IMG/VR virus record: IMGVR_UViG_2734482775_000003
Span: 1-34,271 of that record
DNA: 34,271 nt
Direction: 5' to 3' (one strand)
From: a virus
Taxonomy: Duplodnaviria > Heunggongvirae > Uroviricota > Caudoviricetes
The position numbers and the translations under genes are program-made. Below, one piece after another: positions 1-34,271 of the stretch. The notes beneath the pieces are model-generated. The model was not told the DNA's origin. It saw only the letters and a program-made list of their open reading frames with translations, and searched no databases. How positions within the stretch are numbered: position 1 is the first letter of the stretch; each line of letters opens with the position of its first letter.

Positions 1-1023
1 TTATGTGGATGAAATGTGGATACCTCCTTTTAACGGATTAAGTGAAATTGCATCCTGGAGGAAATCAGGAGCGAGGTGCGCATAGGTCATAGTTTGCTGG
101 ATCGTGGCGTGCCCCATAATTCGCTGGAGCGTAAGTATATTTCCTCCATTAATCATAAAGTGAGCTGCAAAGGTATGGCGTAGAACATGTACAGCCTGCC
201 CTTTCGGTAGGTCAGGCTTAACACTGCGAAGCACCTTGCGATATTCCTCATAATTGACGTCAAACAAAAGGCCGGATTTCTTTGTTTTGATCTCACTAAC
301 AACTTCATCAGAGACAGGAATAATTCGAACTTTTCCGTTTTTAGTTTTGTTAAACGTCACGCGGTTATTGATGATGTGTTCCGCGCGCAGATTTTTCGCT
401 TCTCCCCATCTCGCACCAGTACTGAGACAAAGTAGCGTAATCCGCCGGGCATCACCGCTTACTGCATCCAGTAATTTGGCGATTTCTTCCGTGGTGAGAT
501 ACGTCATTTCGGGTGATTTTCGTTTCAAAGAGGGGAGGGCGCGGAGCGGATTTTCTCCGTGAAATTCCCCGGCATTTGCCAGGAGTGTAAACATTCCTCC
601 GAGATCCGACTCATCACGCCGAACAGTAGACTCTTTTACTCCCAAGGATAAACGGGAGCTTCGATAAGCGGCCATGAAACGAGCATTAATCTGGCTAACC
701 CTTGGATCATTCATTTCTTTGATGATTTTTTTCAACCTGGTTAGAACGCCGTTAGCATATGGCTTATTGCGTCCACCCAATTCCCACCATAACGGAAGCA
801 GATCTGAGAGATGACGTTGCTCTGTTGGCTTTTCAAGCCATTCCTTATCGTGCATGTGGCTGAGAACATAACGCTCAAAGGCCACTGCATCTGCCTTTTT
901 CTTAAAAATCCGCTGAATCCGACGTCCACTTCGGCCACGCGGTCTAACATCCACTTTATACCGTCCACCATCGAGCGCTTTAATTGCCATTGGCAAGCCC
1001 TCCGGTGAAACGAGGAAAGACAT
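1..1023 (-). CDS. int: Tyrosine integrase, P2 Int-like; stop codon is the first three bases of the window
   Basis: 340-aa ORF with C-terminal catalytic-region motifs typical of phage integrases (HVLRHTFA...H...GH...Y); sits downstream of the repressor gene on the same strand, as in P2. Confidence 0.9.
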   Translation of the reverse strand: MSFLVSPEGLPMAIKALDGGRYKVDVRPRGRSGRRIQRIFKKKADAVAFERYVLSHMHDKEWLEKPTEQRHLSDLLPLWWELGGRNKPYANGVLTRLKKIIKEMNDPRVSQINARFMAAYRSSRLSLGVKESTVRRDESDLGGMFTLLANAGEFHGENPLRALPSLKRKSPEMTYLTTEEIAKLLDAVSGDARRITLLCLSTGARWGEAKNLRAEHIINNRVTFNKTKNGKVRIIPVSDEVVSEIKTKKSGLLFDVNYEEYRKVLRSVKPDLPKGQAVHVLRHTFAAHFMINGGNILTLQRIMGHATIQQTMTYAHLAPDFLQDAISLNPLKGGIHISST

Positions 1024-5808: not shown

Positions 5809-8631
5809 ATGACGGCAGAGTACATCAGGGACTGGCAACAACCGCGCCACGCAGTAGGACGTGAAGGAACGGGGATCCCCGCACCTGAATCCGCACTTTC
5901 CTCCTGGCTGGATGCCTACCGGGCAGAGAACGAGCGCCGCCAGGAAATGGCTGACGCGGCGTTCTCCGCCACACCGCTGGGCAACCTGATTAATAAAAGC
6001 CTGGACGCACAGGAAAAGCAGGACAAAACCATCACACTGGCCAGAGAAGCCAGAAAACAGGCACGCGGTGCGGTGGATGAAGCCATGGCCTCGCTGCGCC
6101 TGCTGCCGTCCTATCTGCGCGATCCGCTTATTCGCCACCTCTCCTTCCTGCGCAAAAAACAGGAAGCCGATCGCCGGAAAGGCAAAAAGAGCTGGCAGGC
6201 GGAACGCTATGCACGCGGAACCCTGCGCAAAATATTGGAACGTCTGGCCCGCACTGACGGACGCTGGCTGACTCCGGGTTATCGCTCCCTTGCCGGACGT
6301 GAACGTCTGGACGATTTACTTTACCTGCCGCAGCTCAACAAACACCAGATACAGACACTGGCCGTCATGACGGCGGCAATGTTCAGCAGCACCTTCGAAA
6401 AACTCTGCGATGGCTTTGGCGCGACCGATGGCGAGCTGACCATGGATATAACGCTGAAGGCGTATCAGCTGCTGGCTCGCATGGCGTTACATCTGCACAC
6501 AGTGCCTCCGCATTATGACGCACTGACAACAGACAAAGACCGGAGGAACGAACCGGACACAGAACTGCTGCCGGGTGCAATCCTTCGCCTGACCTGTGCG
6601 GACTGGTGGAAACGCAAATTGTGGCTTTTACGTTGCGAATGGAGAGAGGAACAACTCCGCGCTGCCTGTCTGGTTTCCAGAAAAACATCCCCCTATCTGA
6701 GTCAGGATGCATTAAGTGAATTTCGCGCACAGCGCGAGAAAACACGCGATTTCCTGAAAAGTTTCATGCTGGAAAATGAAGACGGGTTCACGATTGATCT
6801 CGAGACGGTGTATTACGCAGGTGTCAGTAACCCGGTCCACCGTAAAGCAGAAATGATGGCCACCATGAAGGGACTGGAACTTCTGGCCGAAGCCCGTGGC
6901 GACAAAGCGGTGTTTCTGACTGTCACCTGCCCGTCAAAATACCACGCCACAACAGAGAACGGTCATCCGAATCCCAAATGGAACGGGGCCACCATGCGCG
7001 ACTCCAGCGATTACCTGGTTAACACGTTTTTTGCGGCGGTCCGCAAAAAACTGAACCGCGACGGCCTGCGCTGGTATGGCATCCGCACGGTGGAGCCTCA
7101 CCATGACGGCACCGTGCACTGGCATATGATGGTCTTTGCTCATCCGGAAGAAATCGACAGCATCGTGGCCATCACCCGCGATATTGCCATTCAGGAAGAC
7201 CGCCACGAGCTGGGCAATGATATTACTCCGCGCTTTAAGGTGGAGTACGTCGACGGCTCCAAAGGCACGCCAACCAGCTACATCGCCACCTACATCGGAA
7301 AAAACCTGGACAGCCGCGCCGTGGATGGAATCGACCCGAAAACGGGCAAACCACGCGTTGACCACGAAACCGGAAAATCAATGGCCGAGAGCGTGGAGCG
7401 CGCCATCGGCTGGGCGCGCCTTCATCGGGTCCGCCAGTTCCAGTTCTTTGGCATCCCCTCCCGTCAGGTGTGGCGTGAACTGCGCCGCCTTGCCAGCCAG
7501 ATGGCACGCAACCCGGAAGGCCCGCAACGGCTGAAGGATGACGCAATGGATGCGGTACTCGCTGCCGCTGATGCCGGATGTTTTGCCACCTACATTGAAA
7601 AACAGGGTGGCGTACTTGTTCCGCGCAAGGACTACCTGATTCGCACAGCCTACGACCTCGCAGATGAGCTGAACGATTACGGCGAACAGAGTGTACAGAT
7701 TTACGGGATCTGGTCGCCATTCATCGGGGAATCCTCCCGTGTGTGCACGCATCCGGATAACTGGAAGCTGGTAAGACGTAAACCGGAAGCGGAAGACAGC
7801 GCCCGCGAAAATGGTTTTGACCTTCAGGGCGGCCCTGCCGCCCCTTGGACTCGTGGCAATAACTGTCCCCGTGTACAGGAAACGGACAACAACGGGACAG
7901 AACAGCCGGAAGAACGGCCAGCACCGTGGCCGCAGCTCCCTGACGGCGTTGAAGTGAACGAATGGATGCGCTCACTGAAACGGCACGAACGCCGGGCGCT
8001 GATGCGTTCGCTTCGTGACAAACAGGCAAAAAACAGCAGTGATGAAATGCAGAGCTGGACACAGAGCCGCAAACAGCAGCGGCCTTTGCCTGATAACCAC
8101 GAATTACTCGCTAAAGAATGGCGGGAGTCTGCTGAATCTCTCGGCCTGCATATCGGTGAACAGCAGATGCAGCACCTGTTACGGGGCGGCAGTCTGTACG
8201 TTGACGGCAGCATCATTGCACCGCAGGGATTTGAAATTGTACGCAAACCGGATACCCGCCCGGACAGCCGAATCACGCAGCTCTGGCAACGCCTGAGCCG
8301 TAATCACGGCGTAAGCAGCACGGAGATCCGCCATAACCCGGTCGCCAGCTATCTGGAACAGCTTGGGGTATCAGACCCTGAAGCCGCCGCACGCCTGGCA
8401 TCCACACTTCAGCAAGACCAGAACACCATGAAAACACCCGTTACCGTGCTTTCTGACATGCTGCGCGCCATCCGCGACGCAGAGCACGCACAGAGAATCA
8501 GTGAAACCACTGAACGCGCCCGCCGCAAAGCAGACCTGCTGCGGGGTGGCCTGACCAGTGGAAACAAAAAACAGACAAAAACGGGATTCACAAATCCCGT
8601 AAATGAGCAAAAAACGCGCCGCGATATATGA
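5809..8631 (+). CDS. A: Rolling-circle replication initiation endonuclease, P2 gpA family (HUH relaxase-type)
   Basis: HUH-type motif TVHWHMMVFAH and paired catalytic tyrosines in SYIATYIGKN; position between the early operon and the packaging genes; about 180 aa longer than P2 gpA as I recall it. Confidence 0.9.
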   Translation: MTAEYIRDWQQPRHAVGREGTGIPAPESALSSWLDAYRAENERRQEMADAAFSATPLGNLINKSLDAQEKQDKTITLAREARKQARGAVDEAMASLRLLPSYLRDPLIRHLSFLRKKQEADRRKGKKSWQAERYARGTLRKILERLARTDGRWLTPGYRSLAGRERLDDLLYLPQLNKHQIQTLAVMTAAMFSSTFEKLCDGFGATDGELTMDITLKAYQLLARMALHLHTVPPHYDALTTDKDRRNEPDTELLPGAILRLTCADWWKRKLWLLRCEWREEQLRAACLVSRKTSPYLSQDALSEFRAQREKTRDFLKSFMLENEDGFTIDLETVYYAGVSNPVHRKAEMMATMKGLELLAEARGDKAVFLTVTCPSKYHATTENGHPNPKWNGATMRDSSDYLVNTFFAAVRKKLNRDGLRWYGIRTVEPHHDGTVHWHMMVFAHPEEIDSIVAITRDIAIQEDRHELGNDITPRFKVEYVDGSKGTPTSYIATYIGKNLDSRAVDGIDPKTGKPRVDHETGKSMAESVERAIGWARLHRVRQFQFFGIPSRQVWRELRRLASQMARNPEGPQRLKDDAMDAVLAAADAGCFATYIEKQGGVLVPRKDYLIRTAYDLADELNDYGEQSVQIYGIWSPFIGESSRVCTHPDNWKLVRRKPEAEDSARENGFDLQGGPAAPWTRGNNCPRVQETDNNGTEQPEERPAPWPQLPDGVEVNEWMRSLKRHERRALMRSLRDKQAKNSSDEMQSWTQSRKQQRPLPDNHELLAKEWRESAESLGLHIGEQQMQHLLRGGSLYVDGSIIAPQGFEIVRKPDTRPDSRITQLWQRLSRNHGVSSTEIRHNPVASYLEQLGVSDPEAAARLASTLQQDQNTMKTPVTVLSDMLRAIRDAEHAQRISETTERARRKADLLRGGLTSGNKKQTKTGFTNPVNEQKTRRDI
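8577..8606. repeat. Palindromic 30-bp repeat, copy 1 (inside the gpA 3' end)
   Basis: caaaaACGGGATTcacaAATCCCGTaaa, internal palindrome ACGGGA/TCCCGT. Confidence 0.6.
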
Positions 8632-8707: not shown

Positions 8708-9667
8708 ATGAAAATTTGTATCGACGACGGCTCCACCAACATCAAGCTGGCATGGACTGAGAACGGCGAACGCCGCAACGCCATCAGCCCGAACAGCTTC
8801 AAGTCGGAATGGTCTGCGCCGTTCTGTGGCACGCAGCCCGCGAACTATATGCTTGATGGCGTGCGCTATGGTTTTGATCCGGTCAGCGATCGCTTTGTCC
8901 AGACGACCGACACGCAATACCAGTACAGCGATGTGAATGTCATTGCCATTCATCACGCGCTGGTCAAATCAGGCATCACGCCACAGGAGGTGGATGTGGT
9001 TGTCACCCTGCCACTGAGCGAGTATTTCGACACAAACGCACAGCCGGACATGACCAACATCAACCGCAAAAAAGCGAACGTTATGCGCCCGGTGGAGTAC
9101 CAGAACGGCGAAGCATTCACTATCCGTAACGTACGGGTTATGCCTGAATCCATTCCGGCTGGCTTTAAGGCACTGGCTGACATGAGTCCGTTTGAATCCC
9201 TGCTGATTGTGGATTTGGGCGGAACCACGCTGGATGTGGCAAAGGTTCAGGGGCAACTGGCAGGTATCAGCCAGATGTTTTGCGATCCACACGTAGGCGT
9301 TTCTCTGATGGCCGATGCCGTACTGTCGGTGATGGCCACTAACGGTATGCGCACCAGTCACCACATCGCCAATACCATTATCGAACATCGCCATGATGAA
9401 GCCTGGCTGCGCCAGCACATCCACAATGACGCGCATTACGCCAGCCTGATGGCGGTTATTCGTGAAAAGGAAGAAACACTGAAACAACGCGTGATCCGCG
9501 CGCTGGCGGGTTTTTCGGGTTACGGGCGGGTGATGGTTGTCGGTGGCGGGGCGGAGATTGTGGCACCCGCTATCCGCGAAGCCTGCGGAGTTAATGCGAC
9601 TTTCATCGCGGACGGGGTGCCACAGTTTGCTCTGGTTAATGGGCTGTACGCAATGGACAAGGAGTAA
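8708..9667 (+). CDS. parM: ParM/StbA-family actin-like segregation ATPase
   Basis: N-terminus MKICIDDGSTNIKLAW, plus YSDVNVIAIHHAL, VMPESIPAGF, LLIVDLGGTTLDV and GYGRVMVVGGGAE, all closely matching plasmid R1 ParM motifs as recalled. Confidence 0.85.
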   Translation: MKICIDDGSTNIKLAWTENGERRNAISPNSFKSEWSAPFCGTQPANYMLDGVRYGFDPVSDRFVQTTDTQYQYSDVNVIAIHHALVKSGITPQEVDVVVTLPLSEYFDTNAQPDMTNINRKKANVMRPVEYQNGEAFTIRNVRVMPESIPAGFKALADMSPFESLLIVDLGGTTLDVAKVQGQLAGISQMFCDPHVGVSLMADAVLSVMATNGMRTSHHIANTIIEHRHDEAWLRQHIHNDAHYASLMAVIREKEETLKQRVIRALAGFSGYGRVMVVGGGAEIVAPAIREACGVNATFIADGVPQFALVNGLYAMDKE

Positions 9668-9671
9668 ACCA

Positions 9672-9986
9672 ATGACGACACCAACCAGACGGATAAGTTT
9701 CTATCTGAAGCCAGTCGCCGTCAATAGTGAACGGGAGGCGTGTAATTACCTCGACAGCCTGCCAGCCTCTGAACGCAGCCGCGCGCAACGCGCGGCCTTT
9801 CTGGCCGGGCTGGCACTCATAAAACGCGATCCTGCATTTGCCTATTGGTTGGCCGAATGGCCGGAAGAAGGAGCTGCGCCAGCCAAGAATAATATTCAGA
9901 GTAAATATGCCAGCGCACCTGCCACCGGAAGCAATCACAGCACTAGCGAGATAAGAAAGAACATTCAGTCATTTTTCCCAGAGTGA
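9672..9986 (+). CDS. parR: ParR/StbB-family centromere-binding adaptor
   Basis: N-terminal region RRISFYLKPV...DSLPASERSRAQRAAFLAGLAL parallels R1 ParR (DSIPQGERSRLNRAALTAGLAL); AAGGAG RBS; directly follows parM as in par operons. Confidence 0.75.
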   Translation: MTTPTRRISFYLKPVAVNSEREACNYLDSLPASERSRAQRAAFLAGLALIKRDPAFAYWLAEWPEEGAAPAKNNIQSKYASAPATGSNHSTSEIRKNIQSFFPE

Positions 9987-33678: not shown

Positions 33679-33939
33679 ATGTTCCGTTGTCCGCTTTGTG
33701 GCGCATCTGCCCGTATCCGCACCAGTCGTCCGGAAAATGATTCAAACACCGTGCGGCAAAAGTATTACCAGTGTAACAATCTGGAATGCGGCGTATGCTT
33801 CTCAACACTGGAAGCTTTCCATAAATTCACATCAAAACACGCCTCCGGCGTTCACTCTTCAGAAGGTATCCCGTGGCATGAGCTGCCAGCTTCACACAGG
33901 GGAAACAATCAGATGAGTTTGCCTTTATCTCAGAATTAA
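33679..33939 (+). CDS. ogr: Late transcription activator, Ogr/Delta zinc-finger family
   Basis: N-terminus MFRCPLCGASARIRTSR...YYQCNNLECGVCFSTLE; four-Cys zinc-finger pattern as in P2 Ogr (MFHCPLC...QCQNVNCSATF). Confidence 0.85.
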   Translation: MFRCPLCGASARIRTSRPENDSNTVRQKYYQCNNLECGVCFSTLEAFHKFTSKHASGVHSSEGIPWHELPASHRGNNQMSLPLSQN

Positions 33940-34130
33940 CAGGCAGAATTGCCGGAGTAACAAAAAAGCGATAGATTACGCGCGGGTGCCTTTCGGCTGA
34001 TGGTCGGAGGGAATACCCGAAGGCCAGATGTGGAAAGGCCCCGGAAAACATTTCTGTTTAACCGAGGCCCTAACATATCTACCTTAAGCAAGTGATAGGT
34101 TAGCGCCTCTCCAACAAAGGAGCAAGCGCT

Positions 34131-34271
34131 ATGTCGCAAAAATCGCTTACAGCCATCACATTCTGCGTGACGGTAATCCTCATCATCTGGATGCTGCACG
34201 GTTCGCTGTGCGAAATACGGATGAGCTTCTGGGGAGCGGAGTTTGCGGCGTTCTTACAGTGTAAGCAGTAA
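34131..34271 (+). CDS. Hok/Gef-family membrane toxin (type I toxin-antitoxin); stop codon is the last three bases of the window
   Basis: 46-aa ORF MSQKSLTAITFCVTVILIIWMLHGSLCEIRMSFWGAEFAAFLQCKQ: hydrophobic helix then SLCEIR...AAF signature of Hok proteins; not in the ORF track (below size cut-off). Confidence 0.7.
   Translation: MSQKSLTAITFCVTVILIIWMLHGSLCEIRMSFWGAEFAAFLQCKQ

Follow-up and report, generated by a model that had tools for sequence, protein, structure and literature searches.

The right end of the IMG/VR virus record IMGVR_UViG_2734482775_000003, whose complete stretch of 34,271 nucleotides (nt) is referred to here as the window, most probably carries a hok/sok type I toxin-antitoxin (TA) cassette that travels as cargo of a P88-like phage (Xuanwuvirus, P2-family). 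Since a Hok toxin gene was found together with a homologous mRNA leader, a lock between the tac and fbi elements at the two ends of the mRNA, a sequestered hok start codon and a position within the phage, we filed the locus as a type I TA system like parB (hok/sok) of plasmid R1. The probability of this reading is put at about 85% for identity, cargo status and outline of the mechanism taken jointly, a figure that excludes the biological role.

The toxin gene

The 46-amino-acid open reading frame (ORF), which had been picked out by its Hok signature in a sequence-only reading of the window, matched Pfam PF01848 (HOK_GEF) with 30.1 bits (E 3.7e-7, profile positions 5-42 of 42), where the gathering cut-off is 22 bits, and PHROG 251 with an E-value of 2.5e-23. 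When it was aligned with HokA, HokC, R1 Hok and three members of its own clade, residues C12, T14, C27, E28, E37, A39 and F41 were invariant; the family-invariant transmembrane Cys, the C-E of LCE and the E..A.F motif are thus all present. By these matches the ORF is a real Hok/Gef gene, beyond chance, and its product is predicted to be a toxin acting on the inner membrane of Escherichia coli.

The protein also appears to be under purifying selection. When it was compared to 12 further protein variants of related loci, the ratio of non-synonymous to synonymous substitution rates (dN/dS) was 0.00-0.30, and the variable sites of the coding sequence (CDS) were distributed over the three codon positions as 24/16/36.

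The closest named protein, and also the best NCBIfam match, is HokA of K-12, with 43% identity over 40 amino acids. However, we rejected its filing as a HokA orthologue, as it scored only 35.8 bits with the HokA equivalog NF007290, far below the cut-off of 89. An identity with hokW, suggested by the label 'MokW-like host killing' that the gene bears in P88, was rejected as well, since HokW is a different protein of 51 amino acids and the label is merely a PHROG family name; in RefSeq the gene is labelled 'Hok/Gef family protein'. Judged from these scores, the ORF encodes a member of the Hok family that is the orthologue of no named Hok. PADLOC, which holds no Hok model, returned no match for the cassette, while two antisense ORFs (33936-34199 and 33827-34051) matched no family and were dismissed.

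The hok mRNA, its leader and its fold

The ATG of hok is preceded by an untranslated leader of 147 nt, which was matched by the Rfam model RF01794 over the full length of the model (Table 1). Aligning this leader to known hok loci, as the sequence-only reading had proposed, was productive: the K-12 hokC leader aligned along its whole length, including the -10 hexamer, the tac region, the Sok region and the Shine-Dalgarno (SD) sequence, and both tac and, in the relatives, fbi could be located. The -10 of the putative hok promoter aligns to TATAAT of K-12 hokC, and the promoter, counted by hand, agrees with the consensus at 8 of 12 positions. In a control, the hokC leader of K-12 scored 118.3 bits with RF01794 on the hokC sense strand. 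Although this model is named 'sok antitoxin', the strand that it recognises is the sense strand of hok, between the 5′ end of the mRNA and the start codon of hok (L007 502-654, minus strand), and strand calls made from it are to be read as hok-sense.

The full-length copy of the module in the genome of UTI89 folded with a minimum free energy (MFE) of -176.8 kcal/mol (z -7.7), at which nt 1-15 pair with GGUCGAAAAGGCACCC over 15 bp and a terminator hairpin follows. In a consensus fold built on 63 distinct modules, tac is paired with fbi at the two ends, the hok start forms a helix with a segment inside the CDS, and a hairpin follows the stop codon; 99.5% of its cells are paired, compared to 36-47% when the partners were slid. 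The three tac-fbi helices were 99.5-100% paired. Compensatory changes were found in 9 pairs, and on four of the five measures the observed value was reached by none of 500 shuffles. Since the search pattern itself set the first 20 nt at the 5′ end, the tac-fbi pairing shows one-sided (wobble) variation only, the changes on the fbi side being nearly all from G-C to G-U or from U-A to U-G.

The helix that closes the hok start, between AUGUCGCAA and the dcb-like element UUGCGGCGU (columns 157-165 with 273-281), was paired in 99.8% of cells. In addition, 41 nt around UUGCGGCGU are identical between P88-type modules and those of Shiga toxin (Stx) phages, whereas the remaining CDS has diverged. The local hairpin between the SD and its anti-SD was paired in 94% of cells, with no compensatory changes among the 63 modules. 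The alternative local hairpins, consisting of the Sok-target stem and the SD/anti-SD stem, were compatible with the alignment (92.6% paired), and on three of the five measures their covariation did not exceed that of shuffles. When fbi was removed in silico, tac re-paired inside the leader and the accessibility of the Sok target rose from 0.26 to ~0.4.

The predicted antisense gene

Sok had not been found by eye in the sequence-only reading; it can now be placed at ~34087-34028 by its position on the annotated sokC of K-12, and we regard it as a predicted antisense gene. Folding of the minus-strand transcript gave a long hairpin (-32.3 kcal/mol, z -4.9). All 63 distinct modules share the -10 hexamer of the putative sok promoter; the -35 hexamer, which overlaps the hok SD, occurs only as TTGCTC, TTGCCT, TTGTCT or TTGACT. 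The sok promoter of R1 has the same arrangement and position. The most variable part of the whole module is the leader at ~34070-34095, which faces the 5′ tail of Sok, as expected of a specificity determinant.

Table 1. Positions of the cassette features and of the neighbouring phage genes in the window
Feature	Position	Strand	Basis and remarks
hok toxin CDS	34131..34271	+	46 amino acids, MSQKSLTAITFCVTVILIIWMLHGSLCEIRMSFWGAEFAAFLQCKQ; single hydrophobic helix at ~residues 6-23
Putative hok promoter	33949..33977	+	-35 TTGCCG 33949-33954, 17-bp spacer, -10 TAGATT 33972-33977; read from sequence
hok mRNA leader, regulatory, includes the Sok target	33984..34141	+	Rfam RF01794, full model 1-157
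hok mRNA 5′ end / tac, GGGUGCCUUUCGGCU	33984..33998	+	RF01794 position 1 = 33984; partner fbi beyond the window
Anti-SD CCUCUCC (34106-34112) and hok SD AGGAG (34118-34122), local hairpin	34106..34122	+	MFE folds
dcb-like element UUGCGGCGU in hok CDS	34243..34251	+	Pairs with hok start AUGUCGCAA (34131-34139) in the inactive full-length fold
Predicted Sok gene, ~60 nt, ends approximate	~34028..34088	-	Positional homology to K-12 sokC (L007 553-611)
Putative sok promoter	34097..34125	-	-35 TTGCTC 34125-34120, 17-bp spacer, -10 TAACCT 34102-34097; read from sequence
31-codon leader ORF (ATG +16); not mok, not conserved	34000..34095	+	Length 4-87 codons in 55 leader variants
19-codon leader ORF (ATG +44), TAA 34085-34087	34028..34087	+	6-79 codons in other alleles
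ogr, late-gene activator; upstream neighbour, outside the module	33679..33939	+	Pfam Ogr_Delta 52.4 bits
Integrase	1-1023	-	
gpA (replication gene)	5809-8631		

The cassette as phage cargo

The window spans from the stop codon of the integrase to the stop codon of hok, thus neither attachment (att) site lies inside it, and the evidence for cargo comes from its relatives. The sequence-only reading had left two options, prophage cargo or a host gene flanking attR, and had placed the att site of P2 within ~200 bp downstream of ogr. This placement is right, as the attP core of P2 lies 102-129 bp after ogr, in an ogr-int interval that holds just a terminator and attP. Of the two options, cargo stood and the flanking gene did not, as attR was found downstream of hok at two different sites.

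At the first of them, the prophage of UTI89 lies between serS and dmsA, with the serS terminator AAAGCGCCCGCAGGCGCTTT as the direct repeat and the right att copy ~255 bp beyond the hok stop. At the second, between pheL and raiA, prophages were identified in ETEC4075, TUM1880 and 23CRST001 as well as in an IMG/VR locus (L022); the repeat is the raiA terminator ACAAAAAACGCGCCCGAAGG[C/T]GCGTTG, and the right copy is separated from hok by 1.7 kb, which hold a TM2-domain gene, com and the gene of a DNA methyltransferase. The integrase region of these three genomes is 100% identical to that of the window, and in none of them does the span from integrase to hok equal 34,271 bp. The comparison with unoccupied sites that had been proposed earlier gave a clear picture, with one core at each of the serS/dmsA and pheL/raiA sites of K-12, the flanks joined and hok absent. 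A circular record of 34,461 bp runs from int to ogr, hok, com and the methyltransferase gene and back to int. By these comparisons hok is phage cargo placed between ogr and attP, and a host gene is excluded.

Both att cores are host transcription terminators, those of raiA/RaiZ and serS (K-12 L141 1000-1050 and L140 1240-1275, respectively); as integration duplicates the terminator, one copy is left to the host gene. In prophages with the integrase type of the window, the stretch between hok and attR encodes a membrane protein with a TM2 domain, a zinc-finger regulator of the Com family and a DNA methyltransferase (L005 1227-2664; L022 6492-7930; L135; L136). These genes are absent or different in UTI89 and P88, which makes the ogr-attP interval a variable accessory slot. 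The circular record, NZ_CP148288.1 (L009), is deposited as an E. coli 'plasmid' and is a complete P88-like phage genome with int, cox, gpA, ParM/ParR, structural genes, ogr, hok (protein 100% identical), com and the methyltransferase gene. The circle could be the excised form caught by assembly, or an episomal state.

Distribution and limits of the mobile unit

The 632-bp stretch from ogr to hok was found in phage P88 (Xuanwuvirus, Peduoviridae) with 98.1% identity, and in ten other P88-type phage records, including PhiR44_2, Chuche and Shae_phiSM, with 93.7-97.5%. The UTI89 copy is 99.4% identical to the window over 632 nt. At a coverage of at least 80%, the ogr-hok block was present in 1179 of 5426 complete E. 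coli genomes, thus about one fifth of them carry it. We also scanned IMG/VR with the 20-nt 5′ end of the hok mRNA, which returned more than 120 loci; ogr was immediately upstream in 95 of the 128 loci with enough upstream sequence, and the other 33 lay in other phage contexts.

In Stx2a-converting phages, a module with 84.7% identity to the present one is found among unrelated genes. The similarity between the P88-type and the Stx-type starts exactly at the -35 hexamer (33949) and stops at GGCACCC, ~80 nt past the window end. As the similarity extends from the -35 to fbi alone, the mobile unit comprises ~430 bp, from promoter to fbi.

Among the GTDB species representatives, the exact 5′ 20-mer was confined to Salmonella enterica, Escherichia albertii and three odd assemblies. 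Two contigs with the 20-mer bear the labels Xanthomonas pisi (857 bp) and Vagococcus sp. (L010 and L013), of which L013 has a complete module with a leader type identical to that of P88; in both cases, contamination of the assembly by E. coli or phage DNA is the probable explanation. In a 65.6-kb Stx-like IMG/VR contig (L094), the leader is broken at +41 (from 8475) by unrelated DNA beginning with TGAAGTGGTCAACAAAAACTGGCC. This insert looks like the end of an insertion sequence (IS) and recalls the IS-inactivated hok loci of K-12, where hokA is interrupted by IS150.

Comparison with known systems

The cassette shares with hok/sok (parB) of R1 a single-helix Hok with the LCE...AAF signature (33% identity), a leader of ~150 nt, the pairing of 5′ tac with 3′ fbi followed by a terminator, the long-range lock of the hok start, and a predicted antisense gene within the leader, with a -35 that overlaps the SD of hok. 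On the other hand, its toxin has 46 rather than 52 amino acids, it lacks mok, it resides on an integrating phage instead of a plasmid, and its leader scores below the Rfam gathering threshold. The R1 layout used here follows in part a published account (PMC9841398).

A hok/sok cassette on a temperate phage is also known from the Stx2 prophage Sp5, where experiments have shown hokW-sokW to be a working type I TA system with a response to the induction of the prophage (Takada et al. 2021, PMC8621323). However, HokW has 51 amino acids, is HokC-like (MKQQKAM...DYESEK, from the primers in PMC8621323) and falls outside the 46-amino-acid clade; the 84.7% identical copy of the present module in Stx phages is a separate one. 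As with the P2 morons (old, tin and Z/fun), the cassette is non-essential and self-contained, has a putative promoter of its own and sits at a backbone junction, here ogr-attP. Unlike them, its slot is not among the defence hotspots of P2-like phages, which are gpA-portal, the tail region and int-att (PMC9122126), and the cassette is not known to act against phages. A literature search on hok in P2-like phages returned nothing specific. We consider the cassette an uncharacterised member of a well-known family, with the lack of mok as its sole unusual feature.

The window and its right edge

The window has a P2-like layout, with the integrase, gpA, ParM/ParR directly after gpA, the structural genes and ogr. 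The hok ATG follows ogr after 191 bp and the hok stop codon is the last triplet, in agreement with the gap of ~190 bp and the coincidence with the window end that were first noted. Out of 130 related loci (from IMG/VR and genomes, mostly IMG/VR prophage calls), 39 stop at the same base, and the abrupt end at the hok stop is a trimming artefact. The hok locus runs ~120 nt further in L002, L001, L005 and L022, and every complete relative has the 3′ untranslated region with fbi and the terminator, which lies outside the window. At the 3′ end the window is matched best by L022, which is identical to it over the last 332 nt and 97.7% identical over 6.3 kb. Past base 34271 the contig would continue, as in the relatives, with GGAAACCGCGACGGGG...GGCACCC within ~85 nt. 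Gene-boundary trimming of prophage predictions routinely removes fbi and the terminator, and constructs or models built from trimmed records would yield a mis-regulated locus.

No terminator-like site was found on the plus strand between the ogr stop and the hok promoter (33940-33983), whereas in P2 a rho-independent terminator is annotated at a distance of 11 bp from ogr. Transcripts of the late operon may thus extend into hok/sok.

ParM (8708-9667) matched StbA_N with 272.9 bits and ParM_N, the ParM C-terminal domain, with 229 bits, and a ParR-like protein within 9537-9986 matched Plasmid_stab_B with 86.8 bits. Phage P88, the prophage of UTI89 and the circular 34.5-kb copy all encode the pair as well, and by this comparison it is a lineage-wide feature of P88-like phages. 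The sequence-only reading had likened the element to R1, which pairs parA (parMRC) with parB (hok/sok). Homologues of ParM/ParR and of hok/sok are indeed both in the element, but the resemblance is one of gene content only and a plasmid-like lifestyle is not supported.

Leader ORFs and the absence of mok

That mok had not been found by eye is explained by its absence. The mokC of K-12 extends hokC in frame at the N-terminus and starts with an ATG; here, the position of the mokC start is occupied by an ATC at 34077, an in-frame TAG follows at 34101, and the leader ORFs are erratic. We found no conserved mok in three frames of 55 leader variants, which indicates a clade without a conserved mok and a window allele without any. 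The 31-codon leader ORF had no Pfam match. The frame of the 19-codon ORF is open after its TAA through hok, and only some alleles read into hok; it may be a relic or a variant of a mok-like frame. Both leader ORFs stop (at 34095 and 34087) before the anti-SD/SD hairpin. In R1, mok starts at nt 116-118, and no Hok is made unless mok is translated as far as the hok SD (PMC9841398).

Proposed mechanism and points against it

By analogy with R1 and K-12, the hok mRNA would be made constitutively from its own promoter and would be stable and inert under the tac-fbi lock. Slow trimming of the 3′ end would remove fbi and refold the leader, with which the short-lived Sok of ~60 nt would then pair, leading to cleavage by RNase III. 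Once sok transcription stops, be it by loss of the prophage, by phage shut-off of host transcription or by induction, Sok would decay first. Hok would then be translated and inserted into the inner membrane, and the cell would be killed or depolarised.

Several results weigh against a hok/sok cassette that works in this manner. RF01794 scored 47.9 bits on the leader (E 1.3e-9), below its gathering threshold of 59, and Rfam at gathering thresholds returned nothing on a complete relative. The toxin missed the cut-offs of the HokA equivalog, given above, and of the generic NCBIfam Hok subfamily NF007279 (23.6 bits, cut-off 73). A consensus promoter scan of both strands at a threshold of 9/12 gave no match, so the hok and sok promoter calls rest on homology. 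The fbi and the terminator of the window copy are deduced from relatives. Furthermore, the in silico 3′ truncation left the hok SD closed, with an unpaired probability of ~0.2 in every truncated fold. With the SD mostly paired, no conserved mok and no leader ORF that reaches the SD, the allele could be poorly translatable.

Biological role and alternative explanations

The most likely role is selfish retention of the prophage through the killing of cured cells, while abortive infection or a help in lysis could be by-products or alternatives; the three roles are not separable from the sequence.

Perhaps the same mechanism was selected for abortive infection, in which a superinfecting lytic phage would cause Sok to decay and the cell to die early. 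P2-like phages are reservoirs of anti-phage systems in accessory slots (PMC9122126, PMC13586616), the slot after ogr holds further accessory genes (the TM2 protein, Com and the methyltransferase), and hok/sok of R1 lowers the plating of T4 (as cited in PMC8621323). However, the T4 effect needed a high-copy plasmid, the same two papers on P2 hotspots are silent on hok and on the ogr-att slot, and PADLOC has no model for Hok. We consider it unlikely that this is the selected role, though by no means far-fetched.

Somewhat less likely again is that the mechanism was selected as an aid to lysis and release after induction, as for hokW-sokW of Sp5. Deletion of the latter halves the phage released after mitomycin C, and after induction the Sok RNA vanishes and HokW appears (PMC8621323). 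The 84.7% identical module in Stx2a phages fits such a role, and so does the lack of a terminator between ogr and hok, through which late transcription could enter hok. Nevertheless, HokW is a different, HokC-like protein of 51 amino acids, to which the result is tied and from which it is not automatically transferable; the effect was just two-fold, and phages of the present type have their own holin and endolysin (annotated in relatives).

The main sceptical view is that the locus is a decaying, non-toxic relic, like the K-12 hok loci inactivated by IS or mutation, whose Hok is untranslatable without mok. No ORF reaches the hok SD, the TAA at 34085 cuts a frame that in some relatives runs from the ATG at +44 through hok, R1 depends on the translation of mok (PMC9841398), none of the computed folds frees the SD, and the leader of L094 is broken by inserted DNA. 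This view is countered by the purifying selection on Hok, which includes variants of the same leader type (dN/dS 0.00-0.30), and by the RNA helices, which keep pairing through compensatory and wobble changes. Moreover, the hok ATG is preceded by a good SD, AGGAG, at a spacing of 8 nt, and the mok-less leader type is abundant, which is unexpected for a dead locus. A relic is thus improbable.

That hok is the first host gene beside attR, outside the prophage, is hardly conceivable: the short distance from ogr to the attP core in P2 and a window that ends at hok, with its own attR out of sight, speak for it, but the ogr-hok block lies in P88-type phage records and in the circular copy, the att repeat is beyond hok both in UTI89 and in prophages of the window's integrase type, the two K-12 intergenic regions have one core and no hok, and the module moves with ogr at different chromosomal sites.

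Implications for Hok control

In the window allele, the absence of a mok ORF that reaches the hok ribosome-binding site means that Sok must work by mRNA cleavage or by a folding switch, not by translational coupling. We suggest, tentatively and with the odds rather against it, that the clade as a whole (P88-like and Stx phages) is regulated without mok, with Sok acting through RNase III decay or through a three-way folding switch. In such a switch, the leader segment GAGGCCCUAAC would pair with GGUUAGCGCCUC and so keep the anti-SD off the hok SD; binding of Sok to GAGGCCCUAAC would free the anti-SD, which would then close the SD. The clade, having no conserved mok, offers a natural test case for the need of translational coupling in the control of Hok. 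If the suggestion is true, mok coupling, which has long been part of the definition of hok/sok, would be dispensable in a natural and very abundant lineage.

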